Positions 10,571-50,424 of a stretch of DNA of 64,000 nucleotides are shown here, piece after piece. This DNA comes from Deltaproteobacteria bacterium. Its GTDB lineage: Bacteria; Desulfobacterota_D; UBA1144; Nemesobacterales; CSP1-2. A program made the position numbers and the translations under genes. Every line of letters begins with the position of its first letter. Position 1 is the first letter of the stretch. The stretch spans positions 300,543-364,542 of the forward strand of contig JBQTHB010000002.1 in NCBI GenBank assembly GCA_052390235.1. The letters run 5' to 3'. The notes beneath the pieces are model-generated. The model ran no database searches. It saw only the letters and a list, made by a program, of their open reading frames with translations, and was not told the origin of the DNA.

Positions 10571-10576
10571 GTTAAA

Positions 10577-10920: not shown

Positions 10921-11215
10921 ATTGTCATTCCCGAACGTTTCTATCGGGAATCCACTTATTATTTAAATACTGGATTTCCACTTTAGTGGGAATGACGCCT
11001 ACATGGTTTGTCATTCTCGAACGCTCCCAGTCCAATACTTTCGGGGACAGTCCTTACCGAGAATCCATCAGTTCTGAAATACCGGATTCCCACTTTCGTG
11101 GTAATGATGCCTGTATGATTTGTCATTCTCGCAGTCTTTTGAGCGGGAATCCACTCATTCCTTCAATACTGGATTCCCGTTTTCACGGGAATGACAGACT
11201 AAAGATTGGAAATGG
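10921..11215. repeat. Three tandem MITE-like palindromic elements between the GIY-YIG gene and cas7
   Basis: ttgtcattcccgaacg...; tttgtcattctcgaacg...ggattcccactttcgtggtaatga; tttgtcattctcgcagtcttttgagcgggaatcc...ggattcccgttttcacgggaatgaca. Confidence 0.85.
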
Positions 11216-11238
11216 CATCTCACAATGACATATCGGAA

Positions 11239-13961: not shown

Positions 13962-13990
13962 AGGTTAGTCCTCATCTTTGTTGTCTAAAA

Positions 13991-14175
13991 GTGTCATTCC
14001 CAAATTTATTTATCGGGAATCTCATACTTTAGAACTGCCGGATTCCCACTTTCGTGGGAATGACACCCACACAATTTGTCATTTGCATGATTTGTCATTC
14101 CCGCAGTCCTTTGAGCGGGAATCCAGTGGTTGAAAAAACATGGATGCCCGATTGCTGCTTCAGGTATGACAAAAC
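13991..14175. repeat. MITE-like palindromic element cluster between cas6 and cas8b
   Basis: gtgtcattcccaaatttatttatcgggaatc; ggattcccactttcgtgggaatgaca; tttgtcattcccgcagtcctttgagcgggaatcc. Confidence 0.85.
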
Positions 14176-14197
14176 GCAAACATCGTATCTTTGGTTA

Positions 14198-14944
14198 TCA
14201 ATCCCCTCTCCCCACCACCTCAAAGCAGCCGAACCCCTGGGAGTTCTTGCCTCCCAGCCCCGCGTCATAGGCGAGCTTTATGAGTTCCCTATCTCCGCCG
14301 AGTTCATAAATCCCCATCCAGCCCTTGATGACGGTATCTCTGTAGAACATTATCTTCTCGTTCGAGTTATTCACCTTCACCGGCAGGAGCGATAACCCCC
14401 CTTCCGGCTCCCTCTCGTAGAAAGCCCTGAATTTCTTCTTGGCATTCTCGCCGATGAGTTCTGCAAATTCCCTCTCAAATGGGGTGTAGTAATAGGTTTT
14501 CTTTTTCCCATCTGCCCTGGACAGGGTGCTGTAGATAGTGGCTGGCGAGAGCATCTTGATTATGAGCTTGTCTGCCTCTACGGCGAAATCCGACATCTCT
14601 ACTGCCGCGAGCCGGAGCGTTTGCGAGTGGATTCTCCCCCGCTCCCCTCTGAGGAGTTCCTCGCCGAGTTCCTCAATAAATTCTCTCATCGGAGAGCTTA
14701 CAACGAGCCTGAACGGAGAGGCAAAGGTTATTGTCTCCTTCGATTTGTTAATTTCATATTCGCCGAGTATGCGAGAGAACGTAAAGAGCCGAAATGTTCG
14801 ACCCTGCGCGGAAAACCCCCTCGTGTGGAGCATGTCGGCGAGCTTCTGTGAGATGGAGCGATAGATAAAAGCCTGAACGTAGTGGCTGTGGTGAATGGGA
14901 AGGCTGAAGCCCGTGTCCGATGCGAATTCTAGGGTTAATCTCAT
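14198..14944 (-). CDS. cas6: Cas6 crRNA endoribonuclease
   Basis: 248 aa; C-terminal glycine-rich loop GLGGKNSQGFGCFEV; first gene of the I-B operon. Confidence 0.85.
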   Translation of the reverse strand: MRLTLEFASDTGFSLPIHHSHYVQAFIYRSISQKLADMLHTRGFSAQGRTFRLFTFSRILGEYEINKSKETITFASPFRLVVSSPMREFIEELGEELLRGERGRIHSQTLRLAAVEMSDFAVEADKLIIKMLSPATIYSTLSRADGKKKTYYYTPFEREFAELIGENAKKKFRAFYEREPEGGLSLLPVKVNNSNEKIMFYRDTVIKGWMGIYELGGDRELIKLAYDAGLGGKNSQGFGCFEVVGRGD

Positions 14945-15010
14945 TTTAGGCTACGAGTGATCTAAACTATATAGCGTATTATAATCCGCGCCATAGCCGT
15001 AATAAAGCCC
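14945..15010 (-). promoter_or_regulatory. Possible cas operon promoter (TATAAT-containing AT-rich stretch upstream of cas6)
   Basis: cgtattataatccgc about 35 nt upstream of the cas6 start on the minus strand. Confidence 0.25.
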
Positions 15011-15184
15011 CCGCAATATTTCGGCAACGTTGCGCTTCCATCTCTAAGGCTCAATCCCCAATTGCTTCCAGACAGGAGGGGGGGCGTGTGCCGTACATCG
15101 GGGGTTTTCTCGGCGCGCTTAGGCGGGATGATGGGAATTATCCCGTAGCCGCCAAAGGGTAGGGTGTGGTGAGAGCGGACTGCC

Positions 15185-15439
15185 TTATCGTCCGTCTTTA
15201 TTGAACGGGATGGATATTGAAAGCTCGTCTCTAGTGAGTCCGGTTTTAACGTTGACCTCAATGTTGTCCAAATTGAACTGAGGGTATTTCCCGAACACGT
15301 TTACTAGATCCTGCCTCACGCGCTGGGTGAAATCCGTCGGAAGGTCTTTGCGCTCGTAGGATAGTACCACCATGAGCCTCTCTTTGGCGATGTCGGCGGA
15401 TTTGGGTTTTCTGAAAAAATCGAATATTGACATAATCAA
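15185..15439 (-). CDS. minE: Cell division topological specificity factor MinE
   Basis: 84 aa with a MinE-like sequence; follows minD with a 4-nt overlap. Confidence 0.85.
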   Translation of the reverse strand: MIMSIFDFFRKPKSADIAKERLMVVLSYERKDLPTDFTQRVRQDLVNVFGKYPQFNLDNIEVNVKTGLTRDELSISIPFNKDGR

Positions 15440-16218
15440 CCTCCGAACAGACGGCTGAAGAAGCTCTTTCTCTCTTCCAGCTCTGTGAATGGAATGTCCT
15501 GACCCTCAAGCCTCTTTGCCACGTTCATAAGCGCTCTGCCCGATTTCGAGTTCTCGGCAAGCACAATTGGCTCGCCTTTGTTGGTGAAATCAACCATGCG
15601 CTCCTCGTCGGGAATGATGCCAATTTTGGGTATGTGCAAGATTTCTTCTATGTCGGCAACGGATAGCATCTCGCCCTTTCGCACCTGATGGAGTCTGATT
15701 CTGTTAATGATGAGTTTTATATTCTCTTTGCCCATGGACTCCAGAAGCCCGATGACGCGGTCTGCGTCCCTTACGGACGACACTTCGGGGTTTACGACGA
15801 TGAGGGCTTCCGAGGCTGGGGCTGAGGCGGTTCTAAATCCCCCCTCGATACCGGCTGGGGAGTCAATTATCACGTAGTCGAAGCTCTCCTTTACCTTCTC
15901 GACGATTTCAACGAGTTGTTCAGGACGCACTGAGTCTTTGTTCTTCGTCTGAGCGGCGGGAAGCAAATACAGCGACTGCCCGCGCTTGTCCTTGACGAAC
16001 GCCTTTTCGACGGCAACTGCCCCGTCAACAACGTCCACTACGTCATAGACAATTCTGTTCTCTAGCCCAAGTATCATATCGAGGTTTCTAAGCCCGATGT
16101 CGGCGTCAATGGTCAGCACCCTTTTGCCGAGGGCGGCTAGAGCCGTAGCGATGTTCGCAGTTACGGTGGTTTTACCGACTCCCCCTTTGCCCGATGTAAT
16201 TACGATAGCCCTAGCCAT
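15436..16218 (-). CDS. minD: Septum site-determining ATPase MinD
   Basis: 260 aa; deviant Walker A SGKGGVGKTT. Confidence 0.95.
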   Translation of the reverse strand: MARAIVITSGKGGVGKTTVTANIATALAALGKRVLTIDADIGLRNLDMILGLENRIVYDVVDVVDGAVAVEKAFVKDKRGQSLYLLPAAQTKNKDSVRPEQLVEIVEKVKESFDYVIIDSPAGIEGGFRTASAPASEALIVVNPEVSSVRDADRVIGLLESMGKENIKLIINRIRLHQVRKGEMLSVADIEEILHIPKIGIIPDEERMVDFTNKGEPIVLAENSKSGRALMNVAKRLEGQDIPFTELEERKSFFSRLFGG

Positions 16219-16233
16219 ATTGTGCTTACCTCA

Positions 16234-16866
16234 TTATGCTTGAATTTTTTCGATATAAATCTGGTTGTCTCTGACAAATGCCTTCTCAGGATATTCGGGG
16301 GTCTGCATATCGTCCGGGGGGCGCGTAAAACACCCGGCGATTCTAAGTTGCTGGGGTTTTAGCTTCAGCGCCATTATGACGGCCGTCTCGTCGCCCCTAG
16401 CCCCTGCGTGGACGACGCCTCTGAGGATTCCCATCACCACGATATTGCCAGAAGCGATGATATAGGCGTCGGGATTTACATCTCCGATGACCAGAACGTC
16501 TCCGTCATGCTCGATTCTCTGGCCGCTGCGCATGGTTTTATTGACGATGTGGGCGGCTTTTTTCTCGGTAACGTCGGGAAGGGATTTGCCTCTGGTGTCC
16601 TTCTCGCGGGCTGTGTCGGCGCGCACTGACTCTGAGGTTTTATAACCGAGGAAATTCGTGCCGCTTTTGCGCAGAGCCTCCTCGATATTACTCTTATCAG
16701 CCTCGGCTAGGGGAATCTCGTTGGTGTCAACGGCAACCGCCGAGTTCTTGAAAAACGCGGCGGCGAGTTTTTCGTTCATCTCGGCGATGTTGGCGTCAAT
16801 TGTCTTGGTTTTATCGAGCTTTATCAGAAGCGCAGGCACGGTGATGCCCTTGACGATGATTCCCAT
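16234..16866 (-). CDS. minC: Septum formation inhibitor MinC
   Basis: 210 aa; C-terminal beta-helix-like repeats; located upstream of minD. Confidence 0.8.
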   Translation of the reverse strand: MGIIVKGITVPALLIKLDKTKTIDANIAEMNEKLAAAFFKNSAVAVDTNEIPLAEADKSNIEEALRKSGTNFLGYKTSESVRADTAREKDTRGKSLPDVTEKKAAHIVNKTMRSGQRIEHDGDVLVIGDVNPDAYIIASGNIVVMGILRGVVHAGARGDETAVIMALKLKPQQLRIAGCFTRPPDDMQTPEYPEKAFVRDNQIYIEKIQA

Positions 16867-26509: not shown

Positions 26510-26690
26510 TGACTCTGCTCAGGATGAAGATGGAATGGATTCCCGCTCTGAGGACTGCGGGAATGACAAACAGGCTCACTACCATTCCAAGCCTCATTCT
26601 TGTCGTTTCGAGCGATAGCGAGAAATCCTGAATTAGATTCCTCATTCCTGTCATTCTCACGAAAGTGGGAATCCATAGTTTCGACTCCTC
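26510..26690. repeat. Composite repeat (family-B head, MITE-like ggattcccgctctgaggactgcgggaatgacaaa, tgtcattctcacgaaagtgggaatcc)
   Basis: Near-identical to 42300-42480. Confidence 0.8.
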
Positions 26691-26974
26691 ATATCTCTAT
26701 CCTCCTTTTTTTGAACTGCTCGAACCATGCAGATACAAAGCTGGAATTGCCAGAGCGGGGCAATCCATCATATATTAAAAATATAAATCAATATCAATTT
26801 GATTCTATCGGAATGAGAGGGAATATCAAGCGGAGATTCATAGAAAATTCGGATGTAAATAGTGGGGCTTATGGCGTATTTCGATACGGTTGCCGCGCCA
26901 GCGACGGTTTGCCAGCCGCCGCGAGAAGGGGCTAATTTTGTGAACTGCTATAATTATTTCTCTTCTTCCCAGCG

Positions 26975-27120
26975 CCTCTGCCCCGCCTAAGCCCCGTGTG
27001 CCAGGCGACGACCCCGACCGAGCGCCCCGAGACTTACCCATGCAACGGCGAGGTGGTCTCCGAGCAGGGCGGAGAGAAGCCCGGTCAAGCTGACTATTGC
27101 AATAATCATCGGGGCGCAAA
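26975..27120. repeat. Direct-repeat copy 1 (about 150 bp, about 85% identical to 28243-28400), containing the 3' part of a small membrane protein gene
   Basis: cgagcagggcggagagaagcccggtcaagctgactattgcaataatcatcggggcgc is identical in both copies. Confidence 0.8.
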
Positions 27121-27125
27121 GCGGG

Positions 27126-27149
27126 TTCGGCTTGAGTGGATTGTTAGGC
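27126..27149. repeat. Orphan attC-like half site (L'-R' with GTTAGGC core)
   Basis: cggcttgagtggattGTTAGGC matches cggcttgaatgaattGTTAGGC of the attC at 35643-35664 at 19/21 positions. Confidence 0.45.
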
Positions 27150-27315
27150 GCCGCTGCCATGAGACGCTGGCTTAGGTGCGAGAGGCAGGCAGGCCGCCAG
27201 AGCAAAGCACAACGCCGCCGCAACAAGCAATGCGACGCCAGCGAAGAAACCCGCGAACGAAAAAACCAGAACGGCATCTGCTGCAACCACTAGTTCGGCG
27301 CCATTGCCGGCGCGA

Positions 27316-27711
27316 CTAGAACGCCGCCGCCCCGGACTCCGCCACCGCGTGGTCTTGCTCGCCTGAGCCACCGCTGACCCCGACAGCCCCAATGACCTTG
27401 CCGTCGCGCTTCAACGGAATGCCGCCGGCAAATATCATGATTCGTCCGCCATTTGACGCGTGGATCCCAAAGAATTGCCCTCCGGATTGGCTGTGCCCGG
27501 CCAGATCCTTGGTCGCGATGTCGAAGGCTCGCGATGTGTACGCCTTGTTGATGGAGATGTCAATACTCCCGATCCACGCCCCATCCATTCGCGCGTGCGC
27601 GACGAGATTGCCACCTGCGTCGGCCACAGCGATGTTCATCGGCTGACCGATCTCACCGGCTTTCGCTTCAGCGGCCGAGATTACGCGCCGCGCGTCTCTG
27701 AGTGTCATCAT
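27316..27711 (-). CDS. GlcG/HbpS-like heme-binding protein (DUF336)
   Basis: Start taken at MMTLRDARRVISAAEAKAGEIGQPMNIAVADAGGNLVAHARMDGA; typical GlcG-family sequence. Confidence 0.7.
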   Translation of the reverse strand: MMTLRDARRVISAAEAKAGEIGQPMNIAVADAGGNLVAHARMDGAWIGSIDISINKAYTSRAFDIATKDLAGHSQSGGQFFGIHASNGGRIMIFAGGIPLKRDGKVIGAVGVSGGSGEQDHAVAESGAAAF

Positions 27712-27852
27712 AGCTCCTCCGTTCCTGACCTGATTGCGCTCGACTGGAGCGATGCGGCAAAGTATGCCGAAGTAGCGCCGACTCCGCAAGCGTTCTGACG
27801 CGAGACTGTGGCGAAGGCGCCGAACGCCCAAGCTCAGCCTTGTTGGTATTGC

Positions 27853-28155
27853 TTACCCAGGCATCTTAGCCGCGAGAACGTCAACTTTCTCGATGGACGG
27901 CGGTGTGGAGAATAACTCGCCCGCCTTTGCCATAAGCGCCGCAGCGACCTTGCCAGAGAGGTGAGCTTCCCGGCCCGCTTCGTTGGGAAAGGCATCGAAT
28001 ATGCCAAAGGTGCTTGGACCGAGGCGGATGCCGAACCAAGCAGTGGTGGCTGGCTCCTCCATTACGAGAGGGAGCCCACTAAGTAGAAAACTCTCGACCT
28101 CCTGCTCCTTACCGGGTTTTGCCTCTAGACGAACAAACAACGCTACTTTCACCAT
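27853..28155 (-). CDS. Antibiotic biosynthesis monooxygenase (ABM) domain protein
   Basis: 100 aa; MVKVALFVRLEAKPGKEQEVESFL... shows the ABM ferredoxin-like fold signature. Confidence 0.65.
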   Translation of the reverse strand: MVKVALFVRLEAKPGKEQEVESFLLSGLPLVMEEPATTAWFGIRLGPSTFGIFDAFPNEAGREAHLSGKVAAALMAKAGELFSTPPSIEKVDVLAAKMPG

Positions 28156-28242
28156 GACGTGCCTCCTGTGGTTGCGACGATAAAACGATATATCAAACGA
28201 TTTCCAGTAAGCCTAACACAACATCAAGCCTAACACAACATC

Positions 28243-28443
28243 TCAGCCTCTGCCCCGCCTAAGCGCCGCGTGCCAGGCGGCGACCCCGACCGGCGCGCCG
28301 AGAGTTGCCCATGAAACGGCGTCCCACAGGTGGTCTCCGAGCAGGGCGGAGAGAAGCCCGGTCAAGCTGACTATTGCAATAATCATCGGGGCGCGGAACA
28401 CGGCGAGAAGGCTTGTCTTTGCCGGTGAATTATATTTTTTCAT
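28243..28443 (-). CDS. Small hydrophobic membrane protein; its 3' half is duplicated at 26987-27120
   Basis: 66 aa; ...APMIIAIVSLTGLLSALLGDHL...; 4-nt overlap with the upstream PepSY gene. Confidence 0.45.
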   Translation of the reverse strand: MKKYNSPAKTSLLAVFRAPMIIAIVSLTGLLSALLGDHLWDAVSWATLGAPVGVAAWHAALRRGRG

Positions 28444-29603
28444 CCGACCTCGCCCTCCGCCGGTCTGCGCTCCTGCCTCTCAAGCTCTTCGATTCGCGCC
28501 TCAACGGGCGATTTGCGCCTCGCGAGCCAGAGATATAAGCCGCTTCCCAGCACGATAATTGTGATAACATCGAGCGCCGTCCAGATGATTTTCATCGGCA
28601 TCCCGCCGTAATCCCCAAAGTGAAGCGGCTGCGAGATGAGAAGCGCCGTTAGATACCACGGCAACTCGCCACTCACTGCGACATCTCCGTTTCGGGCATC
28701 GAGGAGGACGGGCTTCAGCAATTTAGAGGTCAAAGGCGTATCGCCCTTCATGAAAGCGGCAAAATGATGGGGGCTTGCAAAATTGGTTTGGGGGAAAGCG
28801 ATGAACGCTATGTCCATATCCGGCTCGACTGTTTTCAGAGCGTCTATACCCTTTTGAATCCGGTACTCGCCCGGGAAGATGGGCGGCAAATCTCTGTAAG
28901 GCGCGGTCATCGCGGCAAGCTCAGTTGACTGCCAATAAGCCAAAAGCGGCGCGGCTAGGGTGTTAATCACTCCCGTAAACCCGACTACCAGCGCCCACGC
29001 AAGCGTAACTATGCCGAGCAGATTATGTAAATCCAGCCACTTAGTGCGGGATGAAATCTCGCCTCGCACCGCCCCGAAGGGCAGTCTCTTCATAAATGGT
29101 CCATAGACAACCGCTCCCGAAACCAGCGATACCACCAGAAGCAGTCCCATGAATCCCAAGAACAGCGCCCCCGGAAGTCCAACGAAAAGGTCTGTGTGAA
29201 ACTCAAACATATAGTACATAAACCCCTGCCTGAGCGGGTACTCAAGCAGTAATTCGCCGGTGCGAATGTCGTAGGTGTAGAAAGCCGTTGATTCTTCGGC
29301 GTCGGGGGTTTTAGCCATAGTCAGCCCCCAAATGTCCGGCTCGTCCTCTTCCTGAAAGACAAACTGCACGGCTTCGCCCGGGCGTCTCGAGCGCGCGTCG
29401 TCAACTATTCGGTCGAGGCTCAGGTGAGGAGCGCCTTCGGGCAGGGCGGGGGCTTCGGGGGCATTGCCGAGCAGATGGTCAATTTCATGATGAAAAATCA
29501 GCGGCAGTCCCGTCAAACACAGAAGAAGCATAAACACCGTGCAGACGAGGCTTGTCCACTTGTGAACCAGATACCATGATTTGATTGTTCTAGCCGTGAG
29601 CAT
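28440..29603 (-). CDS. PepSY-associated TM helix protein (PiuB-like), intact
   Basis: Start at MLTARTIKSWYLVHKWTSL with a GGAGAT RBS; HFGDYGGMPMKIIWTALD C-terminal motif. The ORF track's longer 565-aa version reads through the upstream pseudogene. Confidence 0.75.
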   Translation of the reverse strand: MLTARTIKSWYLVHKWTSLVCTVFMLLLCLTGLPLIFHHEIDHLLGNAPEAPALPEGAPHLSLDRIVDDARSRRPGEAVQFVFQEEDEPDIWGLTMAKTPDAEESTAFYTYDIRTGELLLEYPLRQGFMYYMFEFHTDLFVGLPGALFLGFMGLLLVVSLVSGAVVYGPFMKRLPFGAVRGEISSRTKWLDLHNLLGIVTLAWALVVGFTGVINTLAAPLLAYWQSTELAAMTAPYRDLPPIFPGEYRIQKGIDALKTVEPDMDIAFIAFPQTNFASPHHFAAFMKGDTPLTSKLLKPVLLDARNGDVAVSGELPWYLTALLISQPLHFGDYGGMPMKIIWTALDVITIIVLGSGLYLWLARRKSPVEARIEELERQERRPAEGEVG

Positions 29604-29620
29604 GGGGATATCTCCTTTTT

Positions 29621-30137
29621 TTAAAACTCCACCCTGAGCGTCCCAATCACCGCCCGAGCCGCCGCGCGTTCTACTTCTGTTGTGCCTCCTCCGATGAAAA
29701 AGAATTCCTCGTCGAATAGGTTTTTCACGTTCACCTGAAGCGAGATACGTTCGCGCCTGTAAAAGAGCAGCGCGTCGGTCTGAACCCAGCCGTCCGCATT
29801 GCTGGTGTTGGCTTTGGACAACCGCTTCCGCAGTCTCGTCAAAGTCGGTCAGGCACATCTGCACGCTGTACCCTGGACTGATCAACTCTTCTTCGGAGGA
29901 CTTGAGACCGGCGAGTACCTTCGTAGCGTCCATGCCGGGCGCATAGCCGGGTTGCGAGAAATCGATCAATGTTGGATCCAGCCCGATCACGAACACACTC
30001 TTCTCATTTGGCACAGCTGCCCCCATCTGGTTGGAGTTAACGTCAAGACCTACCTTCGGCCCTATGAAGGTCGCGGCACGGATCGTCCTTCGTCTCTGGT
30101 GCTCCTCGATATCCGCCCAACGGGCTGGGTGGGGCAT
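29621..30137 (-). pseudogene. TonB-dependent receptor 3' remnant (5' part missing, frameshifted)
   Basis: C-terminus ...FFFIGGGTTEVERAAARAVIGTLRVEF ends with the terminal aromatic residue typical of TonB-dependent receptors. Upstream barrel-like sequence is in another frame. The gene is cut off at the attC at about 30115-30185. Confidence 0.5.
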
Positions 30138-30185
30138 CAGCTGCGGCGCGTTTTGTGCGCCGTCAGCTGCATGCTGTTGTTAGGC
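30115..30185. repeat. attC-like site (integron cassette recombination site): GCCCAAC...GTTAGGC with imperfectly paired internal arms
   Basis: R''-type GCCCAAC (30115-21) and R'-type GTTAGGC (30179-85). The arms catcagctg-cggcgc and gcgccgtcagctgcatg pair with extrahelical bases. Confidence 0.55.
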
Positions 30186-30260
30186 GCTCACTTGATGTGT
30201 CCGCGTATCACTGCGAGGACACATCAACCTGCTCCAGTCCCTGCTGAGTCACGCGACACA

Positions 30261-33200
30261 CTACTTGCGGATACCATTCAGGAACTCGTCCACGTACGGG
30301 AAACTCCTCTCGATAACTTCCAGCAACGTCGTGCCGACCTGCGTGGTCAGCCGACTGAGATCAAAGCACTCCAAAACCGCACGCAGATGTTCGTCGCTGC
30401 CAGATTGAACACCGTGTCGCTCCAACAGATACCTGGCAACAACTTGCAGCTCGCTCGGAGGAATCTCCTCGAATGATCGCGGCCCCCTGGTTCGCAACCT
30501 GATCGGCGGGCTTCCCGTCATTCTGACAATGGAGAAAAGGATGCCGCTCTTACCAGCCTCATCTTCACAAACAACACGTCCCTGCCAAATGGCATGGGAC
30601 AGCACCTTGTTCATAGTGCTCTTGAGATCATGGCCCATTCGCTTGATGCCGCAGCCTCTCAGGTAGATGTCGTAGGCTCGTTTCGCAACCACTGGACCTT
30701 CGACCTCGACGATCCGGACAATGCCTTCCGAGACTCCATGCTCGTTGACGCTGCGAGGGTCATTCCCTGGAGGGCCGACATACTCCACATAATCGCTGAA
30801 TGGCAGATTGGCGTCTCGCGAGGTGACCGAAGAAACGATCAATCCCGTGCGGCCAAAGGGAATCCCGTCGTCGTTCGACGGATTCAGGCGAGCCTCTGCT
30901 GAAGGCGCGTCTCCTTTTGCTGAAGTGGTTCGTGCCGGCGGTACCTCAGAAAGCCATGCGTGAGCACTCTCGACAACCGCCGGCTCGATGAGAGAAGACA
31001 CGACGCGGTGCTCGGTATGCACGCTCCTCGGCGCGCCTTCGGCCCCAATCGGTTCGATGCCGCGTTCGGCTAACGTCTTCATGAGGTCGTCCAGGATGTC
31101 CTTGCGCCGCCGGATGAAGGCGGAGGCGAAACACCGCCAGAACACCCAACCGGCGCGCTCCAGGACGCGCTGGCGCTGCATGTCGTCGGCCCACTTGTCC
31201 GCTCCGTGGTACTTGTCGCCGTCGCATTCGACCGCCAGCCGCGCATCGTTGTGTCCCTCAACGACCATGTCGATGCGGTACTGGCCGACACGCACTTGTG
31301 GGGTGACCCAGTAGCCACGTTGCGTTAGTGCATCGTACATCTCGCCCTCGAAGGGGGACTCGCAAAGTGTGCGCAGATCCGCCACGCGAAGCTCATCCTG
31401 GGCGAAGGGTGTTGCGAAGTGCGCGATGAGACTGCGGCGCAACCGATCCGCATCGCTCAGATGCTCCAGTGCCACCGAGCGCACTAGGTACATCCGGTCC
31501 CTCGCGCGCGACGCTGCCACGTTGAAACGCTGGGCAAAAGTGTCGCGGGAGAGCGGCGCACCGACCTCGTTGGGCGCAGACACCATCGAGAGAAACATGA
31601 TGTCCCGCTCTTTACCCTGAAACGTGCGTGCATCGCCGCAAGCGATCTGATGGCGCTGCGTTAGTTCCGGTCCGAGTTCGGCGGTTAGCCGCTCCCATAT
31701 CAAAAGAGCCTGCTTGTCGGCGAGCAGCGAGACGACCCCGATTGAGCGCCGGGCCATGTTTGGGTCAGACACAATCGCCTTGATTTCATCGACGATGAAG
31801 CGCGCTTCGGACACATTGACGTCGCCATTGCGGTAGCCGTCTTCCACCACCACGTCCACGAGGGGCGGGTCGAGCCGCTCGGAGGCTTTGGGCATGCGCA
31901 GTGGCCGGAGCTCGTGATTGTAGAACTCCCGCTTAGAGTACTCGATGATCGGGCCGACGCAGCGGAAATGCTCCTTCAACATCACGGCGCTCTTGGCAAA
32001 GACTACTTTGAACAGATCATAGATGGAGCGCTCAGGAGACATCTGCGGGCGGTACGTTTCCACCTGATTGCCGAGGAAGCGACTCATAAGACTGCGAATC
32101 TTCTCTTCCTCAAGTCCGACGCCCTCTGGGGAGACTTGCTTGTCGTCGCCGACGATGAGGACTTTCTTCCCCCGTAACAAGGAAGGCAATGCCGTTAGGT
32201 CGGACTGCGACGCTTCGTCGATGATGACGAGGTCGAAGCAGCCGAGTTCTGCAGGCAGCGATTCGGACACGCGATAGTGCGGCATGATCCAGCACGGCAC
32301 GGCAGGATTCGCCTGCGATGCTGCCATCCGCGCATCCTGTCGATAGCGCACCGCACGCTTGCCAGTGCCCTTGCCGATTTTCTGAATGGCGTTGAGATAC
32401 GCCTGCAGGGCCGCCCGAATGCTGGGCGAAGCATTCTCTGCGAGCTTCAGCCACGTCCGCTTCACAACGATATCGCGATAGGCGCGCGACAAATCGCTCT
32501 CCACTTCGTGGCGATCCTTCGCCAGCTTCTTTAGCGCCTCCTGAGCGTCAATCAATTCGAGGTGGGTGGCGAGGCGCCTCAGGCGCCAAGCGGTGCGCCA
32601 GTTGTCCGGTAGAAGGCTATCCGCCGTGCTCTCAAGGGGTCGCCTGAGTGCATCCGCGTACTTGGGCGCCCCCGAGGACTCGATTTTTCCGCAAACCTCA
32701 TGCACGGCGGCGAGTTGCGTTCCCAAGCCAAGTACGCGCGACAGCTCCGCCATCAGCGCCGTCCAATCAGCCTGCATCCGGGTGTATTCAATCTCTGGGT
32801 TGCCGAGCGTCTCCGCAAGAAACCGACGAATGTCCTCTATGACGCGGCCCGTGCGGCCTACTAGTATCTTCTGAAACCGCTCTTTTTGGTACCAGACGTT
32901 GGCGAGTCGGTTTTTGGTGAGGTGGTGCCGCAGTGCCCTCTCCAGCTCAGCGAGTCGCTGCGTGTCATCCGCCAGCTGGCGGACGTGAGCCCAGTTGGGG
33001 AAGACGAGAGAAGCTGCGCCGCAGACTTCTCCTTCCGCTTTCACTACGCCCTTCACCTTGAGGTAGAGAGCGTAGTCTTGGGCGGCGGCCAGTCCGCCTT
33101 CCGGCTTGTCCCCCGGTAGGGCTTCAAGCTGTAGCTCGGGGGCAAGGGCGTTCCAGCGCAGGGCCAGCTCGCGCAGGGACTTCAACAACGCCAGATGCTC

Positions 33201-35117
33201 CGCGACATACTCCCAGCTCTCGGCGTTGGGAGGGGGATGGCCGAGAACCCGAATGCTGTCCAGCTGCTTCTTCTGGGTCGACTTGCCGAACAGTCCTTTC
33301 ACACCAAAGGGCCTTCGGCCCTTGGCGAGATTGCTCACGGCCTCTGCGATCTCGGCATCAAGCTCGATGCCTTCGGGTGTGGTAACCGGCCGCTCAAGAA
33401 ACGTCTTGCGCCGGTCGACAGCCTGCTCAAGCTCGGCGCCGAGAGCTTCTAGAATCGGCACCATGTTGTCGTTGCCGCCGCGCCGCAGACGTTCTCGCAT
33501 GGCGACGGTCCATGGTCGATGCGCCTGCGCGACTTCATCGCGTAGGCGCCGAAGGGCTTCGATGTCCGTGAGAAGTGTTTGAGCGAGGGCGAGCGTCTCC
33601 TGGCTCGAATCGGCGAGCGCCGGAACGTCGCCGCTCTCCACGCCCTGTTTCAGTTTTTCGAACTGCGACAGATCCTGGTGGACTTCGAGTACTGCCTTGG
33701 AGTCGGGAAACTCCACGAGTTGCGGAAGCGACGCATCGAGGTAGTCGATGTCTTGGCCTAGCGCACGCCTTGCATCCCGTAGCCGCACAACATCCGCGTC
33801 CACGAACTGCGGGGCGAACTCTGGAGTGACTCCAAGCGTGTCAGGAATCCACTCAAACTGGTCGACGTTCCTGGCCACTTCTCGCGCCGCGTCTTGAGGG
33901 TCAATCTCTTCGGTTTCCATCTTGACCGTGGCGAGGTTCCGCTGCGCCCATTCACCAATCTTGCGGTCAATGCTGGCAAGCTTGCCGTGGAGGGCATCAA
34001 TGGACTCTCCAAGATGGTTGATGGCTCTCGCGGTGCTGGCGCGGTCGAGGCCCTGCACCTCGGAGGCAATCTTCTGGATCGCATACTCGAACTGCTTCAT
34101 CCCTTCCTGTTCGCTGGTCAGCAGCGAAATGGCGAGCGGACGGATTTCCTGAGGGAGCTGGTCTTGGAGCACCGCCAATGCCGGGTCCTTCATGGAGGTC
34201 ACAAGCACCCGTTTGCCTTCAGCCAGGTAGTGACAGATGACGTTGGCGATCGTGTGTGTCTTGCCAGTGCCAGGTGGACCCTGCACGACTACGCCATCGG
34301 AGTTATCCAGCAGCTGGATGATGCGGACCTGCTCGTCGTTAAAGGCTTTGGGGAAGTAGAGGTCACGAGCCTTCTTGCCGCTCGCGTTGTCCTGTGGTTG
34401 ATATGAAGCGGAGACCCCACGGAACGTCAGCAGTTCGACGACCGGGTTGGAGGTGTCCGGGTCGGTCACAACGGCAGCCACTGCGGGTGGGTAGGACTTC
34501 GCTTCTTCGGCGCGTTTCTTCAGCTTCTCCAGGTCCTGCAGAAACAAGCTGTTGGTGCGCGGACGCGCAAAGAGCACCCACGTATCAGTGACTTTGAGTT
34601 TGTCGTCGGACTTCGGCAGCGTCCGGTCGGCATCCGACACTTCGTTCGGCCAGTAGATGCCGTTCGCGTCGAGGTTGGTAGCCGCGGTGCGAAGCAAGGG
34701 CTCGAAGGTTCCGCGGTCGTACGGCGAAAACGTTGTTGTAGCCTTCCCGAAGAACTCCTTCGCCGCTTTCTCCAGCTCGGCAACGCCGGGGTTATCGACG
34801 GATGCGTACCAGTCCACCTCTATACGAGCATCGACATCCCGAGGTCGGATTTCCATTTCAGCCGTCACAGGGTTGAGCGACATTTCGGCCAGCCGCCCGA
34901 CCAAGGGATAGCTCACAGTGGCGCCTTTGGAGTTCCAGATTCCGAGCCCCAGGAGAGTTCGAGTTGCGCTTCGACGATGCTGCCATCGAGTTGCTGCTTG
35001 AGCGTGAAAAGCTGGGAGTAAAGGCGAATGGTCTTGCGCCGGAGTTTCTCTTCTTCGGCCCAGGGGCGCCACTTCGTGTCGAGGTACGTGGCGAACTGGG
35101 ACCTGACCATGGCACAT
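30261..35117 (-). CDS. SF1 helicase (AAA_11/AAA_12, Upf1/Dna2-like) fused to a Vsr-like/DUF559 restriction-endonuclease-fold domain and DUF3320; defence-type protein; about 63% GC
   Basis: Walker A VVVQGPPGTGKTHT; Walker B DLVIIDEASQ; VGDDKQVSP; endonuclease-fold motif RIDMVVEGHNDARLAVECDGDKYHG; C-terminal DUF3320-like tail. The N-terminal 60 aa as called are probably out of frame (see 34913-35590). Confidence 0.8.
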   Translation of the reverse strand: MCHGQVPVRHVPRHEVAPLGRRRETPAQDHSPLLPAFHAQAATRWQHRRSATRTLLGLGIWNSKGATVSYPLVGRLAEMSLNPVTAEMEIRPRDVDARIEVDWYASVDNPGVAELEKAAKEFFGKATTTFSPYDRGTFEPLLRTAATNLDANGIYWPNEVSDADRTLPKSDDKLKVTDTWVLFARPRTNSLFLQDLEKLKKRAEEAKSYPPAVAAVVTDPDTSNPVVELLTFRGVSASYQPQDNASGKKARDLYFPKAFNDEQVRIIQLLDNSDGVVVQGPPGTGKTHTIANVICHYLAEGKRVLVTSMKDPALAVLQDQLPQEIRPLAISLLTSEQEGMKQFEYAIQKIASEVQGLDRASTARAINHLGESIDALHGKLASIDRKIGEWAQRNLATVKMETEEIDPQDAAREVARNVDQFEWIPDTLGVTPEFAPQFVDADVVRLRDARRALGQDIDYLDASLPQLVEFPDSKAVLEVHQDLSQFEKLKQGVESGDVPALADSSQETLALAQTLLTDIEALRRLRDEVAQAHRPWTVAMRERLRRGGNDNMVPILEALGAELEQAVDRRKTFLERPVTTPEGIELDAEIAEAVSNLAKGRRPFGVKGLFGKSTQKKQLDSIRVLGHPPPNAESWEYVAEHLALLKSLRELALRWNALAPELQLEALPGDKPEGGLAAAQDYALYLKVKGVVKAEGEVCGAASLVFPNWAHVRQLADDTQRLAELERALRHHLTKNRLANVWYQKERFQKILVGRTGRVIEDIRRFLAETLGNPEIEYTRMQADWTALMAELSRVLGLGTQLAAVHEVCGKIESSGAPKYADALRRPLESTADSLLPDNWRTAWRLRRLATHLELIDAQEALKKLAKDRHEVESDLSRAYRDIVVKRTWLKLAENASPSIRAALQAYLNAIQKIGKGTGKRAVRYRQDARMAASQANPAVPCWIMPHYRVSESLPAELGCFDLVIIDEASQSDLTALPSLLRGKKVLIVGDDKQVSPEGVGLEEEKIRSLMSRFLGNQVETYRPQMSPERSIYDLFKVVFAKSAVMLKEHFRCVGPIIEYSKREFYNHELRPLRMPKASERLDPPLVDVVVEDGYRNGDVNVSEARFIVDEIKAIVSDPNMARRSIGVVSLLADKQALLIWERLTAELGPELTQRHQIACGDARTFQGKERDIMFLSMVSAPNEVGAPLSRDTFAQRFNVAASRARDRMYLVRSVALEHLSDADRLRRSLIAHFATPFAQDELRVADLRTLCESPFEGEMYDALTQRGYWVTPQVRVGQYRIDMVVEGHNDARLAVECDGDKYHGADKWADDMQRQRVLERAGWVFWRCFASAFIRRRKDILDDLMKTLAERGIEPIGAEGAPRSVHTEHRVVSSLIEPAVVESAHAWLSEVPPARTTSAKGDAPSAEARLNPSNDDGIPFGRTGLIVSSVTSRDANLPFSDYVEYVGPPGNDPRSVNEHGVSEGIVRIVEVEGPVVAKRAYDIYLRGCGIKRMGHDLKSTMNKVLSHAIWQGRVVCEDEAGKSGILFSIVRMTGSPPIRLRTRGPRSFEEIPPSELQVVARYLLERHGVQSGSDEHLRAVLECFDLSRLTTQVGTTLLEVIERSFPYVDEFLNGIRK

Positions 35118-35590
35118 CTGTCGTAGTCGGAGAGCATGACAGTCGCCTCGGGGGCGATGACCGGTCTGCCCTGCTCTGGTGAACTTGCCGATGAATAATA
35201 TGTGCCCTCTGCAATCAGGCTGGCGCCGTCCGTGGCCTCGCGCAGCCGCGGCTCTTCAGTTGTCCCCTGCGCCATCTGCACCCAAGGCCGCAGTAACGGG
35301 CTGGCAATACCCGGAGGCCTCATCTCGTGCAGCCGCTCAACGGCAAGCCAAATCTCGTCCTCGCTCTCGGGGCCGTTGACGTTAAGGCGAATGCCTGGCA
35401 GTCCTTGAATCTCGTGCTCGTAGAGTGCGAAGAGACCGTGTGCGGCAACGGTAGCGGCTGGCTTGCCTCGCAGCCGCGCGGACTGCTGAGAGAATTCGAT
35501 GAGGGAGAGAAGCCGAGTCTTTTCCTCGTTCATGAGGCTTCTCATGTCATTGTCTGGGGTTTCAAAACATCGCATTCTTATCACCCGCAT
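34913..35590 (-). CDS. Probable N-terminal (DUF4011-like) segment of the helicase gene, in a different frame, implying a frameshift near 34950-35000
   Basis: 225-aa ORF starting 13 nt after the attC and overlapping the helicase ORF by about 200 nt in another frame. Confidence 0.45.
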   Translation of the reverse strand: MRVIRMRCFETPDNDMRSLMNEEKTRLLSLIEFSQQSARLRGKPAATVAAHGLFALYEHEIQGLPGIRLNVNGPESEDEIWLAVERLHEMRPPGIASPLLRPWVQMAQGTTEEPRLREATDGASLIAEGTYYSSASSPEQGRPVIAPEATVMLSDYDRCAMVRSQFATYLDTKWRPWAEEEKLRRKTIRLYSQLFTLKQQLDGSIVEAQLELSWGSESGTPKAPL

Positions 35591-35604
35591 CAGGCGTCAG
35601 GTGC

Positions 35605-35664
35605 GCCTAACGCCTGAATTAAGCCGCGCCGCGAAGCGGCATCGGCTTGAATGAATTGTTAGGC
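35605..35664. repeat. attC site (about 60 bp): GCCTAAC...GTTAGGC core and inverse core with internal imperfect palindrome
   Basis: GCCTAACgcctgaattaagccgcgccgcgaagcggcatcggcttgaatgaattGTTAGGC; begins 2 nt after the stop of the upstream cassette ORF. Confidence 0.65.
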
Positions 35665-35665
35665 A

Positions 35666-36169
35666 CTACTTGCCTACCAGTACGGCGTCCATGTCGTACT
35701 GGTAGTAGGCACGGTCAGCACATTTGGCGTTGAACCTAGCGACAGCGGCATTGACTTGCTCCACGCGTGCGTTTGCGTCAGGTAAGCGATTGTTATGGGC
35801 TGCTACGAGCTGTCGATGGCGATCAACAAGGGCGTTAAAACTATCAATGGAGTCTTGGCTATAAACGTCGACCAGACCTTCCTGTGCAGTAATTTCTGTC
35901 TCTAACCGATTGATTTTTACTGCATTTGCGGCAATTGAAGCCTGAAGTTGATCAACTTGGTCGCCACTCGCGTTAATCGCATTTTGCTCTTTGACGCATT
36001 GCGACAGTTGATCGCGTGCAAGCACTGGCCCTTTGTGCCGCGCGCCAATTGATAGACCACGAGTACGAAAGCCAGCACGACGGCGTCCGCGAGCATCTGC
36101 ATCTTGGATGATCAATGTGATAGCAAACCCGAACAAGCCAAAAAGTGCGGCTCTTCTACTAACGGACAT
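35666..36169 (-). CDS. Hypothetical secreted coiled-coil protein (first integron cassette ORF)
   Basis: Start MSVSRRAALFGLFGFAITLI with a GGGGAG RBS, about 25 nt after the attI junction core ACCCAAC (36191-97). Confidence 0.55.
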   Translation of the reverse strand: MSVSRRAALFGLFGFAITLIIQDADARGRRRAGFRTRGLSIGARHKGPVLARDQLSQCVKEQNAINASGDQVDQLQASIAANAVKINRLETEITAQEGLVDVYSQDSIDSFNALVDRHRQLVAAHNNRLPDANARVEQVNAAVARFNAKCADRAYYQYDMDAVLVGK

Positions 36170-36190
36170 GATTGAACTCCCCACTGTAGC

Positions 36191-36324
36191 ACCCAACTTA
36201 TGATTGAGCGGAATCATTCCGCCTAATCACCGAATTTTGTGTATTATCTGAAACAATTCGGGATAATAATCTTAATATCCAGAATGAAAGTAAACTCTTT
36301 TCGGGAGTTTCGCAAGAGCAATTT
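36191..36324. promoter_or_regulatory. Putative attI region with cassette promoter, between the intI' start and the first cassette
   Basis: The junction core ACCCAAC reads GTTGGGT on the cassette strand; AT-rich 130 bp upstream of the intI fragment. Confidence 0.35.
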
Positions 36325-36673
36325 ATGGAAAATAAGCCAAAAATGTTGGAACAAGTCAGAATGGTCGCCAGAGCAAGACATTTGAGTCATAAGACCGAAG
36401 ACGTTTATCATAATCGCATCAAGCGGTTTATTTTGTTTCACAACAAACAACATCCGAAGGAAATGAGCAATGGCAGGGGTTGAGAAATTCTTGACCTATC
36501 TTGCCGTAGAGAAATATGTGTCTGCCTCTACCCAGAATCAGGCGTTCAGCGCCTTATTGTTCCTTTACCGAGAGGTACTCAATAAACCCTTGGAAGGTCC
36601 AATCAACTCTTTGCGTGCGAAGCGACCTAAAAGACTGCCGACAGTTTTGACCCGGGAGGGTAGCTTTGCCTGA
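36325..36673 (+). pseudogene. intI: Integron integrase (IntI) N-terminal fragment, frameshifted at about 36470 and truncated after about 117 aa
   Basis: MENKPKMLEQVRMVARARHLSHKTEDVYHNRIKRFILFHNKQHPKEM, then GVEKFLTYLAVEKYVSASTQNQAFSALLFLYREVLNKPLEGPINSLRAKRPKRLPTVLTREG. This closely matches the IntI N-terminal domain, for example the FHNKKHP...EEFLTYLAV...STQNQALNALLFLY...RLPVVLT pattern of Vibrio IntIA. No catalytic domain is present. Confidence 0.75.
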
Positions 36674-37553: not shown

Positions 37554-38327
37554 ATGGCTATTGGTGTCTGTCCTACATTTTGGCTCGATAAACCGCAAAC
37601 CGATAGGCTCAAGGCTCTGGCTAGGGCGGGAGGCGACGGCGCGATTGAACTATTGCGCGGGACTCAACCGGCGCCGCGACCTGGTCAATATGAAGACTTG
37701 AGCTTGAAGCTGTATTTCAGCGCTGGGGGTGATCCATCGGGCGGGCCCGATACAATGGTAGTAACTCTGCTAATTGTAAACCTCGGCGCTGAACCGTTGC
37801 TTTTGTCGGAACCCCCCGCTGACCCCTGGGGACAACTCCGCTACGCCCCAGTGGTGATGAATCGCCTCGATGCGTTTGATAAACCGCGGGGTTCTGACCG
37901 TGTTGGCGACCCCCTGCCATCTGGCTTTGTGAAGCAGGAGAGCTATAGTTGGGACAAACATAGCGAGTGGGTACAATTCTGGATTGACCCCGCCCCGATA
38001 GACGCCCTAGGAGCGGGCTCGTCGTCGGTCGGGGTATTTCAAATTGTCAAAGATTACGGGATGTACTCAGGCGCGGGAGGCGCGGTTAAATTATCTAGCT
38101 CCGGGCGTTTTGACCACTGCTATATCGGGGGCGAATACAACTATAATAGCGTTAAAAACTGCGGCGCTATCGGTATGAAAGACTGCGGCACTGCGCGGGA
38201 CTTCTTTGATAAATTTGTCGCCGGCGCTGAGCGTTATACCGATACCGATGCCTCAGGCTCTGGGGCTTACTGCGCTTGCAGTAGCATAAACGGTCCTTTC
38301 AACTGTATAACGGCGGTGATTCCATAA
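37554..38327 (+). CDS. Hypothetical Cys-rich protein, first gene of a three-gene operon
   Basis: 257 aa; C-terminal Cys cluster (CYIGG...NCGAIGMKDCG...YCACSS...NCI). Confidence 0.5.
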   Translation: MAIGVCPTFWLDKPQTDRLKALARAGGDGAIELLRGTQPAPRPGQYEDLSLKLYFSAGGDPSGGPDTMVVTLLIVNLGAEPLLLSEPPADPWGQLRYAPVVMNRLDAFDKPRGSDRVGDPLPSGFVKQESYSWDKHSEWVQFWIDPAPIDALGAGSSSVGVFQIVKDYGMYSGAGGAVKLSSSGRFDHCYIGGEYNYNSVKNCGAIGMKDCGTARDFFDKFVAGAERYTDTDASGSGAYCACSSINGPFNCITAVIP

Positions 38328-49521: not shown

Positions 49522-50424
49522 GTGAACTCAGCGCCAGATAACATCGCTAAATTTAGGTATTATCTCTGCTCCGAAAGGGGATATTCCAAGCACACTCTAA
49601 GGGCTTACATCTCGGATATTCGTCAATTTGCCTCATTCCTCGGGGAGAGAAAGAGCGCCGAGGCATCCCTCGTGTCCGTGGAAGAAATTGACGTAAGGGC
49701 GTACCTAGCCCGCATTCACAGGAAAAATAGCAAAACCTCGATTTCCCGCAAGCTCACATCCATAAGAGCGCTTTTTGAGTTTCTCCTGCGAGAGGGCATC
49801 GTCGCCAAAAATCCAGCGAAATTGCTCCCTACGCCCAAGGCTGAGAAAAAGCTCCCGTCTTTCCTCACAGTGGACGAGGCTTTTCGGCTTCTCGACTCCC
49901 CCGGCTGGGACGCAAAACCCCTCGCGCTGAGAGATGCGGCAATTCTCGAGCTTCTGTACTCCAGCGGACTTCGCGTGAGCGAGCTTACGGGGATAAAAAT
50001 CACCGAGCTTGACCTCTCCGAGGCTGTGGTGAAGGTGCTGGGCAAGGGGGCGAGGGAGAGAGTAGTACCCGTAGGCTCGAAGGCGGCGGCGGCGCTTGGG
50101 CGATATATTGAGCGCAGAGAATTGCTTGGGCCCAGGTCGGACTCGCTCTTTCTCAATTCCAGAGGGGGGGCGCTTACGCCCAGAAGCGTCGCCGTAATCG
50201 TGAAGAAATGCTCCCTTCTATCAGGCATAGCCAAGAACGTAAGCCCTCACGTGCTGAGGCACACATTCGCAACGCACCTGCTCGGAGGAGGCGCCGACCT
50301 TCGCGCCATTCAAGAGATGCTAGGACACAAGAGCCTTTCAACCACTCAGCGCTACACTCACACCTCCATAGAGAAAATCATGGAGATTTACGATAAAACC
50401 CATCCGAGAGCAAACAACAAATGA
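49522..50424 (+). CDS. xerC: Tyrosine recombinase XerC
   Basis: 300 aa; [12 protein letters not shown]...[14 protein letters not shown]; located upstream of hslVU. Confidence 0.85.

Follow-up and report, generated by a model that had tools for sequence, protein, structure and literature searches.

Can an integron cassette hold a gene of about 1,760 codons, what would such a gene encode, and is it still functional where it is found? These questions are raised by a locus in a 64,000-nucleotide stretch of DNA from Deltaproteobacteria bacterium (assembly GCA_052390235.1, contig JBQTHB010000002.1, positions 300,543 to 364,542), which as a whole is referred to here as the window. At positions 30261 to 35590 of its minus strand lies a gene for a large helicase-nuclease, which is flanked by two attC sites and distributed over two reading frames. 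We favour the view that this is a 5,490-bp mobile cassette in a decayed integron, that its gene encodes a defence-type helicase-nuclease, and that the present copy has been inactivated by a deletion. For this combined reading we estimate a probability of about 0.7.

The list of open reading frames (ORFs) contains two minus-strand ORFs, at 30261-35117 (1618 aa) and 34913-35590 (225 aa), with an overlap at 34913-35117, exactly as given in a preliminary description of this sequence. Judged by their homologs, both overlapping ORFs are parts of a single gene of about 1,760 codons. When the joined protein was used as a query, more than 100 relatives with 70-91% identity were retrieved, most of which are 1,760-1,780 aa long. 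Alignment of the DNA with four homologous loci (L001, L009, L010 and L003) located the frameshift at 34947-34950, where 7 nt corresponding to one unit of a TGGGGCG/TGGGGC direct repeat are deleted. The unit that is lost in the window was retained by every relative examined. At this site the window reads TGGGGCTCGG, with TGGGG followed directly by CTCGG, whereas the four aligned relatives read TGGGGCGTGGGGCTCGG or TGGGGxGTGGGCCTCGG; TGGGGCGTGGGGC was taken as the undeleted allele. Besides a single base, the deletion takes out the two conserved codons for V-G in ...LELSWGVGLGIWN.... At the protein level, the first frame is readable to ...AQLELSWG and the second picks up at LGIWNSKG, whereas all relatives read ...LELxWGVGLGIWN... 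across the break. The start codon that is backed by most homologs is located at 35533 rather than at 35590, and the fragment in the other frame therefore comprises about 197 homologous codons. Thus, the frameshift noted in the preliminary description is real in the sequence, but its out-of-frame stretch is shorter than the proposed 225 or so codons. The 5' gene fragment, from the start to the deletion point, occupies 34951-35533, and the 3' fragment, from ...LGIWNSKG to the stop codon at 30261, occupies 30261-34946 and is otherwise intact.

As written in this genome, the gene appears to be inactive, and the deletion has the form of a footprint of slipped-strand mispairing. A homopolymer sequencing error, i.e. 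a lost G in a run of Gs, was considered as the cause of the frameshift and ruled out, because the alignment shows a 7-nt repeat-unit deletion; this also makes a simple base-calling error in general less likely. At 577 alignment columns with a conservation of at least 97%, the window gene departs in 6, one of which is the placeholder residue put in at the deletion site, and other members of the family depart in a median of 3 and a maximum of 30. The ratio of nonsynonymous to synonymous substitution rates (dN/dS) relative to the closest relatives was about 0.2, the same as among intact relatives, and the helicase motifs and the nuclease motif are all retained. Since the rest of the gene is undamaged, the lesion must be very recent, or it is confined to part of the population or assembly and not fixed. 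Among the 120 closest database proteins, truncation at this point was seen only in P0005, which is the window's own entry (100% identical, 1540 aa, derived from a metagenome-assembled genome, or MAG) and for which the NCBI annotation holds only the downstream ORF.

These observations bear on an alternative that we consider unlikely but worth weighing, namely that the gene is intact in the organism, where it would produce a functional protein of 1,76x aa, and that the 7-nt gap is an artefact of assembly or consensus calling. Such a view would fit the otherwise undamaged ORF, in which the 6 deviating columns compare with a family median of 3 and the dN/dS value matches that of intact homologs, as well as the origin of the sequence from a MAG. 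However, the loss of exactly one repeat unit is a signature of replication slippage and not of homopolymer miscalling, the surrounding integron has decayed too (only half of a third attC site is left, and the integrase gene is frameshifted as well as truncated), and the NCBI annotation made from the same sequence consists of the 1540-aa downstream ORF only. A true deletion in the gene therefore remains our preferred explanation.

With respect to the encoded protein, a Pfam profile search placed the superfamily 1 (SF1) helicase and the Vsr-fold nuclease named in the preliminary description above the respective cut-offs. In the 1618-aa ORF, AAA_11 matched residues 259-419 (E 1.1e-16, 61.8 bits against a cut-off of 27) and AAA_12 residues 1041-1212 (E 4.2e-13, 49.7 bits against 27), and the restriction-endonuclease family REase_MTES_1575 (PF18741) matched residues 1256-1349 over its entire profile (positions 1-96 of 96; E 1.5e-30, 105.5 bits against 38.2). 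The same stretch was matched by DUF559, whose cut-off of 20.6 bits was just exceeded in the window ORF (20.8 bits) and was not reached (19.7 bits) in P0001, the full-length homolog that was used for profile searches. The short ORF of 225 aa matched no family.

The Upf1-like SF1 helicase core is encoded by 31482-34343 (minus strand, as all parts of this gene), and its conserved motifs I, II, III, V and VI are all present. They include the Walker A motif GPPGTGKT at 34257-34280, motif II, VIIDEASQ, at 32205-32228, and the motifs GDDKQ at 32127-32150, TFQGKERD at 31602-31625 and NVAASRAR at 31494-31526. Walker A and motif II are about 680 residues apart, with a long insert in between. The nearest solved sequences in the PDB are the Upf1-like SF1B helicases IGHMBP2, Upf1 and Sen1, which match in the two RecA-like lobes only. 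The helicase is followed by the Vsr-fold restriction-endonuclease domain (31071-31352), which holds ...RIDMVVEGHNDARLAVECDGDKYH..., and by a C-terminal tail, most of which is encoded by 30261-30731, from a weak DUF3320-type match (30621-30731) through the stop codon. The DUF3320 tail of the preliminary description could not be confirmed as such, because the scores for PF11784, 18.5 bits with the window ORF and 20.3 bits with P0001, stay under the Pfam cut-off of 25 bits. The lengths of the homologs indicate that this C-terminal module, roughly the last 240-250 aa, is optional. Most or all of it is missing from 29 of the 120 closest relatives, the tail-less proteins terminating near residue 1513-1610, and the nearest plasmid-borne relatives (about 42% identity; Sphingobium, annotated as 'DUF3320 domain-containing protein') align over residues 1-1512 only.

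The N-terminal domain of about 370 aa (34431-35533) is the part that is interrupted by the deletion. No Pfam family was detected in this region, either in the present protein or in 33 diverse members, and no match was found among solved structures. This includes the DUF4011-like N-terminus that had been suggested earlier: PF13195 was undetected at E≤5 in P0001 and at E≤0.01 in the 33 diverse N-terminal domains. The domain is widespread, with 853 clusters at 50% identity, and it nearly always forms the N-terminus of proteins of 1,500-1,900 aa. AlphaFold2 modelling with an alignment of the 33 sequences yielded a predicted local distance difference test score (pLDDT) of 87.1, and a single-sequence model was unusable (pLDDT 34.7). 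In the alignment-based model, the deletion sits in the beta-strand formed by residues 191-204, where it hits or adjoins W195, G196 and G198, which are invariant or nearly invariant. The location of the deletion inside a beta-strand means that the split does not coincide with a domain boundary and, therefore, that the two fragments are unlikely to represent two separate functional products. The N-terminal domain may be a new sensor module.

We examined how the protein relates to named defence families. The NCBIfam profile ProA (NF058533) aligned its positions 654-1903 with residues 404-1740 of P0001 (E 9.1e-77), and the Hhe profile (NF042953) aligned its positions 1242-1682 with residues 1061-1491 only (E 3.4e-45). 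In PADLOC, the best match was PDC-S37 (E 9.3e-76 to 8e-78; residues 865-1755 to profile positions ~705-1532 of 1550), followed by Hhe and the Mokosh helicases, which match by way of the common helicase lobe; the match to PADLOC's Hhe profile (PDLC02194) was partial and covered positions 1337-1782 of 1911. ProA and PDC-S37 are thus the best-scoring named families. The spans of their alignments indicate that helicase, nuclease and tail are collinear with those of the cassette protein, and the approximately 650 (ProA) and 700 (PDC-S37) N-terminal profile positions that remained unmatched indicate that the N-terminal domain differs. Because the Hhe and ProA scores lie far under the curated cut-offs and the alignments are collinear from the helicase onward, the protein is best viewed as a relative of Hhe, ProA and PDC-S37 that belongs to neither Hhe nor ProA and would probably also stand outside PDC-S37, for which PADLOC gives no cut-off. 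No papers describing ProA or PDC-S37 were found in the literature searched.

Of these families, Hhe is a DUF4011 helicase with a Vsr endonuclease that constitutes a single-gene anti-phage system (NF042953, PDLC02194). Activity of the E. coli protein against lambda, T3, T7 and PhiV-1 has been reported, its weak effect on T7 being abolished by the nuclease active-site mutation E1731A (bioRxiv 10.1101/2022.06.16.496414). The cassette protein shares with Hhe the fusion of an SF1 helicase (AAA_11/AAA_12) with a C-terminal Vsr-fold nuclease (MTES_1575/DUF559) in one large polypeptide, as had been pointed out in the preliminary description, and the alignable part consists of the second helicase lobe and the nuclease. 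Unlike Hhe, it has no detected DUF4011, its N-terminal 400 aa and a long insert within the helicase are unalignable, and its C-terminal tail differs. The MTES_1575 type of nuclease was first described in conflict proteins that contain transglutaminase, HEPN, SF1 helicase, Vsr-fold restriction endonuclease and two winged helix-turn-helix (wHTH) domains, and DUF3320 overlaps the wHTH domains (Anantharaman et al. 2013, PMC3710099). The cassette protein resembles these proteins in having a PF18741 nuclease after an SF1 helicase and a DUF3320/wHTH-type tail, whereas HEPN and transglutaminase domains were not detected in it by Pfam. With MkoA and MkoC of Mokosh it has in common the C-terminal lobe of the Upf1-like helicase (E about 1e-29, residues ~1096-1354). 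However, only about 260 residues align, no PLD domain was found in the Pfam search, and the architecture differs in other respects.

On the basis of homology to anti-phage families, the defence-type neighbours of the homologs and an accessory, horizontally transferred distribution, and by analogy with Hhe, the most probable function of the protein would be that of a stand-alone anti-phage or anti-mobile-element nuclease. The polypeptide of about 1,760 aa comprises, in this order, the family-specific N-terminal domain, the SF1/Upf1-like helicase, a Vsr-fold nuclease of the PD-(D/E)xK type and the optional wHTH/DUF3320-like tail. The N-terminal domain and, where present, the C-terminal tail may sense or bind the invader or gate the activity of the protein, the SF1 motor would translocate along the nucleic acid of the invader, and the Vsr-fold domain would cut it. 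In the present copy, slipped-strand loss of one 7-nt unit would have removed two conserved residues of the N-terminal domain and shifted the frame. The neighbours of the homologs include a ParE toxin-antitoxin pair, HEPN_AbiU2, GmrSD, a DUF1156/DUF499/SNF2 locus, ArdcN, HigB and PIN toxin-antitoxin modules, and the plasmid gene RepA.

It is also conceivable, although in our opinion rather improbable, that the protein is not an immune effector at all and serves as a helicase-nuclease in DNA repair or recombination, or in the stabilisation of (or addiction to) plasmids or integrons. Helicase-nuclease fusions are used in repair as well, and several homologs are located on plasmid-like contigs with RepA and ParA. 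Nevertheless, the patchy spread at 75-91% identity across many phylum labels follows the pattern of accessory or conflict genes, and the neighbourhoods contain toxin-antitoxin, Abi, GmrSD and restriction-like genes. Moreover, generic helicases aside, all named families that score above noise are anti-phage families, and the MTES_1575-type architecture was described for conflict systems (PMC3710099). A role in defence thus remains the interpretation that we prefer.

The second part of the question concerns the cassette itself. Judged by its boundaries, the helicase-nuclease gene forms a genuine integron cassette of 5,490 bp, which runs on the minus strand from 35610 to 30121, starting with TTAGGCGCACCTGACGC... 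and ending with the G of the R' box GTTGGGC. DNA homology at independent loci stops at the same boundaries. Directly upstream of the gene, the minus strand from 35664 to 35605 reads GCCTAACAATTCATTCAAGCCGATGCCGCTTCGCGGCGCGGCTTAATTCAGGCGTTAGGC. This is the attC site of another cassette, denoted cassette 1 (R'' GCCTAAC ... R' GTTAGGC), and the helicase cassette starts at the G|TT crossover point at 35610 within the GTTAGGC of this site. The attC site of the helicase cassette itself, GCCTAACAACAGCATGCAGCTGACGGCGC...GCGCCGCAGCTGATGC...GTTGGGC, is located at 30115-30185 and has two unpaired bases on its R''-L'' arm. With a covariance model made from ten attC sites, the window's two among them, the upstream and downstream sites scored 69.8 and 62.7 bits, respectively. 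A scan of the window with this model revealed no further complete attC site, the plus-strand partial matches at the two sites reaching 14-15 bits and all matches elsewhere staying at or below 11 bits. A looser scan by regular expression and folding had produced many additional attC candidates, which were false positives, and the covariance model kept the two sites only. The attC fold is supported by covariation, with 87% of the cells paired and compensatory changes in 8 pairs. The covariation score of 0.291 compares with 0.109 in shuffled alignments, none of the 500 shuffles reached it, and slid controls paired at 45% at most. The view that the gene is an integron cassette between two attC sites, as originally proposed, is thus upheld both by the scores of these sites and by the homology boundaries at the crossover.

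The attC site of cassette 1 is 91-98% identical to those of the aadB, aac(6')-IIa and aadA (including aadA1) cassettes, which are found on more than 1000 plasmids. This site from an environmental MAG closely resembles the attC sites of clinical class 1 integrons. In plasmids and E. coli genomes, near-identical DNA was limited to this 60-bp attC site. Between the stop codon of the helicase-nuclease gene and the attC site of its cassette lies a 39-nt hairpin, GGTTGATGTGTCC...GGACACATCAAG (30191-30229, minus strand). The closest homologs L001, L009 and L010 have the hairpin segment as well, but L012 and L013 lack it, and their attC begins 28 nt past the stop codon. A scan of the helicase cassette for promoters and terminators revealed nothing above background.

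The remains of an integron are found next to the two attC sites. An integron-integrase pseudogene (delta-intI; 36325-36664, plus strand) was recognised by tblastn, in three-frame translations and with the NCBIfam profile TIGR02249, of which positions 1-105 of 315 were matched (E 6.7e-32). The tblastn match with IntI1 as the query extends over 36340-36580. The pseudogene has an internal frameshift near 36470, is cut off after ...LPTVLTREG, and is divergently oriented upstream of the array. Cassette 1 (35611-36217, minus strand) consists of an ORF at 35666-36217 (183 aa) and its attC site at 35605-35664, and this ORF matched nothing in Pfam, NCBIfam or PADLOC. The layout would accordingly read delta-intI, presumed attI, cassette 1, attC, helicase cassette, attC, and the helicase cassette appears to be the second cassette of a short, decayed chromosomal integron. 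The guanine-plus-cytosine (GC) content of the gene is 60.2%, against 51.1% for the remainder of the window. The gene is therefore compositionally foreign, as had been noted before, although not at the 63% then given.

Beyond the helicase attC site follow a PepSY_TM gene, a small ORF, an HbpS-like gene and then half of a third attC site (27118-27150, minus strand), of which only the R''-L'' arm is present and which is the probable far end of the island, as read from the sequence and its direct repeats. Because repeats of the host type resume at about 26,700, the integron island would measure approximately 9.7 kb (~26,960-36,665). The 3' end of the PepSY_TM gene (28394-28246) has a diverged duplicate of 144 bp (27117-26974), to which the half attC is fused; over their first 67 nt, both copies are identical. 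Past the stop codon of PepSY_TM, a tandem GATGTTGTGTTAGGCTT repeat occupies about 28200-28240. The host-type repeats belong to short families resembling repetitive extragenic palindromes (REP) or miniature inverted-repeat transposable elements (MITE) and are built around GGATTCCC-N8-GGGAATGACA. They occur at 9480-14150, 26518-26680, 42281-42594 and 58595-58659 of the window, dense between the cas genes and scattered elsewhere, and appear to mark host DNA and to help delimit the island. A second integrase candidate, the tyrosine recombinase encoded at 49522-50424, was identified as XerC (340.7 bits against a cut-off of 335) and not as IntI.

If the gene were mobilised as a cassette, the same boundaries should recur elsewhere, and this is indeed what was found. 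The DNA of the gene is 85-90% identical to that at the loci of close relatives. In L001, L009, L010, L012 and L015 homology sets in exactly at the crossover, (G)TTAGGCGCACCTGACGC, and the DNA upstream is unrelated. Other attC sites precede the crossover in L001 and L010, and an attI-side junction does so in L015; in L009 and L012 no recognisable attC was found in the unrelated DNA upstream. On the 3' side, homology ends inside the attC site (GCCTAACAACAGCATGCAGCTGACGGCGC ... GCGCCGCAGCTGATGC), and the covariance model detected the same attC directly after the gene in L009, L010, L012, L013, L016 and L019, most of which sites belonged to the training set. Relative to L009, the attC stems of L013, L016 and L019 show compensatory substitutions. 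L013, from an Actinobacteria MAG, is an array with six or more attC sites, of which five lay outside the training set. In L016 (Chthonomonadales MAG), a complete cassette and attC (10974-16388) are directly preceded by the remains of another helicase cassette, a degraded 3' fragment that has its own attC (10001-10897), so that two members of the same family are found in tandem. In L015 (Spirochaetales MAG), the region 8716-10001 encodes an integron integrase of full length, which exceeds the TIGR02249 cut-off of 265 bits with 448 bits. Its gene ends about 340 bp before the helicase gene on the same strand, in an 'inverted' orientation. Here, the helicase homolog, which is 91% identical to P0001, is the first cassette. 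The same-strand orientation of intI is typical of spirochaete integrons.

Altogether, signatures of attC or of the crossover were found in at least eight contexts other than the window (L001/L014, L009, L010/L024, L012, L013, L015, L016 and L019). The labels of hosts with 73-91% protein identity comprise Acidobacteriota, Actinobacteria, Spirochaetales, Armatimonadota, Krumholzibacteriia, Nitrospirae, Binatia, Verrucomicrobiota, Desulfotomaculum and several proteobacterial classes; among the MAGs that contain homologs of 75-91% identity, the labels Chthonomonadales, Steroidobacteraceae and Deltaproteobacteria are also found. At loci with at least about 80% identity, the GC content of the gene stays near 57-63%, and that of the flanks ranges from 50% to 71%. 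With one unit, one crossover point and one attC recurring behind different attC or attI sites, these comparisons indicate that the cassette is mobile. Its status as a cassette has thus been strengthened by the intI pseudogene beside the array, by the same boundaries elsewhere and by the intact intI next to a homologous cassette. A further observation was made in L001 (Vicinamibacterales MAG, 15387-16849), where the cassette attC is broken after its L'' arm at 15411 and is followed by a 343-aa ORF without a family and by a complete attC (16790-16849). Something may have been inserted into this attC or may have replaced half of it.

These comparisons leave little room for the view that the gene is not a mobile cassette and merely landed between two unrelated attC sites, which we regard as very improbable. 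It is true that 5.5 kb is far beyond reported cassette sizes, that many homologs have no attC nearby, and that a capture experiment did not recover a Vibrio cholerae cassette with a distance of 4 kb between its attC sites (bioRxiv 10.64898/2026.03.17.712381). However, homology sets in at the G|TT crossover whichever of at least five different sequences lies upstream, and on the 3' side the attC accompanies the gene with compensatory substitutions (L013, L016 and L019 versus L009). Moreover, the intact intI of L015 has one copy as its first cassette, and L016 contains a full copy and a degraded fragment in tandem, each with its own attC. From this boundary analysis, the incidental placement of the attC sites appears to be largely refuted.

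Lastly, the idea that the two-copy TGGGGCG heptanucleotide repeat serves to turn a costly defence gene on and off reversibly by phase variation, which would fit the clean loss of one unit from an otherwise intact gene, is barely credible, because there are just two repeat units, these encode the conserved WGVG, and none of the 119 other close homologs is truncated here.

Several observations weigh against the combined reading of a mobile cassette with a defence-type gene that is inactivated in this copy. Firstly, we infer the defence role from homology and context. The protein scored 258.8 bits against a curated cut-off of 1500 for ProA, with profile positions 1-653 unmatched, and 154 bits against a curated cut-off of 2000 for Hhe; the resemblance to Hhe-type systems noted in the preliminary description therefore does not amount to membership, as the second helicase lobe and the nuclease alone align. 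PDC-S37, the best match in PADLOC, is only a candidate system, PDC entries in PADLOC being untested candidates. Furthermore, the neighbours of the gene in the window are not recognisable defence genes, the only exception being a type I-B CRISPR-Cas locus at a distance of about 16 kb. Secondly, the deletion could be the assembly consensus of a minority variant. Thirdly, the absence of an intact intI from the window implies that this copy is probably no longer mobile, and the phylum labels of the relatives are those of MAG bins, to which mobile DNA is easily mis-assigned. In addition, no recognisable downstream attC was found in L003-L008, L011, L017, L018, L025 and L035, which suggests that the gene also persists outside integrons. 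Of these loci, L003-L008, L011 and L017 have lost the downstream attC and kept the 5' crossover sequence, and L018, L025 and L035 have lost both boundary signatures; L003-L008 are located in plasmid-like or defence-island contexts.

As regards the remainder of the window, the CRISPR-Cas region (1-14944) has a GC content of 42-45%, which is below that of the rest. At 40-4700 it contains a CRISPR array, in which the 30-nt repeat GTTTCAATCCCTTATAGGTAGGCTAAGAAC recurs in about 70 units. The genes of the type I-B locus, all on the minus strand, encode Cas1 (5275-6276), Cas3 (6998-9427), Cas5b (9737-10462), Cas7b (11239-12201) and Cas8b (12198-13961). On the other side, the integron is adjoined by three consecutive plus-strand ORFs (257, 583 and 717 aa; 37554-42245), for which no match was found in Pfam, NCBIfam or PADLOC.

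Integron cassettes are usually taken to be small, with sizes of 0.5-1 kb. At 5,490 bp, the helicase cassette is as unusually large as was supposed from the outset, being about 2.7 times the quoted maximum: the largest known cassettes were stated to measure about 2 kb, and the threshold for clustering attC sites in IntegronFinder is 4 kb (PMC4889954). A negative effect of cassette size was reported in connection with the above-mentioned V. cholerae capture experiment (bioRxiv 10.64898/2026.03.17.712381). Recent work has argued that a cassette of 4 kb is in effect immobile and that the defence systems of integrons have been streamlined to comply with the usual size limit. The two attC sites in the window are separated by 5,420 bp, and only a stub of intI is left. 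We therefore infer that IntegronFinder with default settings would not report or join this array.

The presence of defence genes in integron cassettes is established both for Vibrio chromosomal integrons and for the BRiCs of mobile integrons, and the integron-borne systems are described as small and 'streamlined', consisting of one or two short genes, with long loci being absent (bioRxiv 10.1101/2024.07.02.601686, 10.1101/2024.07.02.601719). The present cassette is like these systems in that a defence-type gene is carried with its own attC, and unlike them in that it measures 5.49 kb and contains a gene of about 1,760 codons. What appears to be new here, judged from the sequences, is an Hhe/ProA-like helicase-nuclease with a different N-terminal domain in an oversized cassette that bears signatures of repeated capture.

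As a wider proposal, which we put forward tentatively and judge to be somewhat short of even odds, IntI may move cassettes of 5.5 kb in nature, the helicase cassette may have been captured repeatedly under at least seven phylum labels, and the 'streamlined' rule may in part be an artefact of the 4-kb threshold, with large defence cassettes remaining hidden. If this were true, there would be a hidden class of large single-gene defence cassettes in environmental integrons, and the streamlining of integron-borne defence would partly reflect how such systems are detected. The findings also suggest that standard surveys may miss cassettes of this size. Since the copy in the window is broken and its integron is dead, the interest lies in the cassette family more than in this locus. 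Its relevance is mainly to the size limits of integrons, for which the 5.5-kb cassette provides a concrete test case with respect to recombination by IntI, and to surveys of integron-borne defence.

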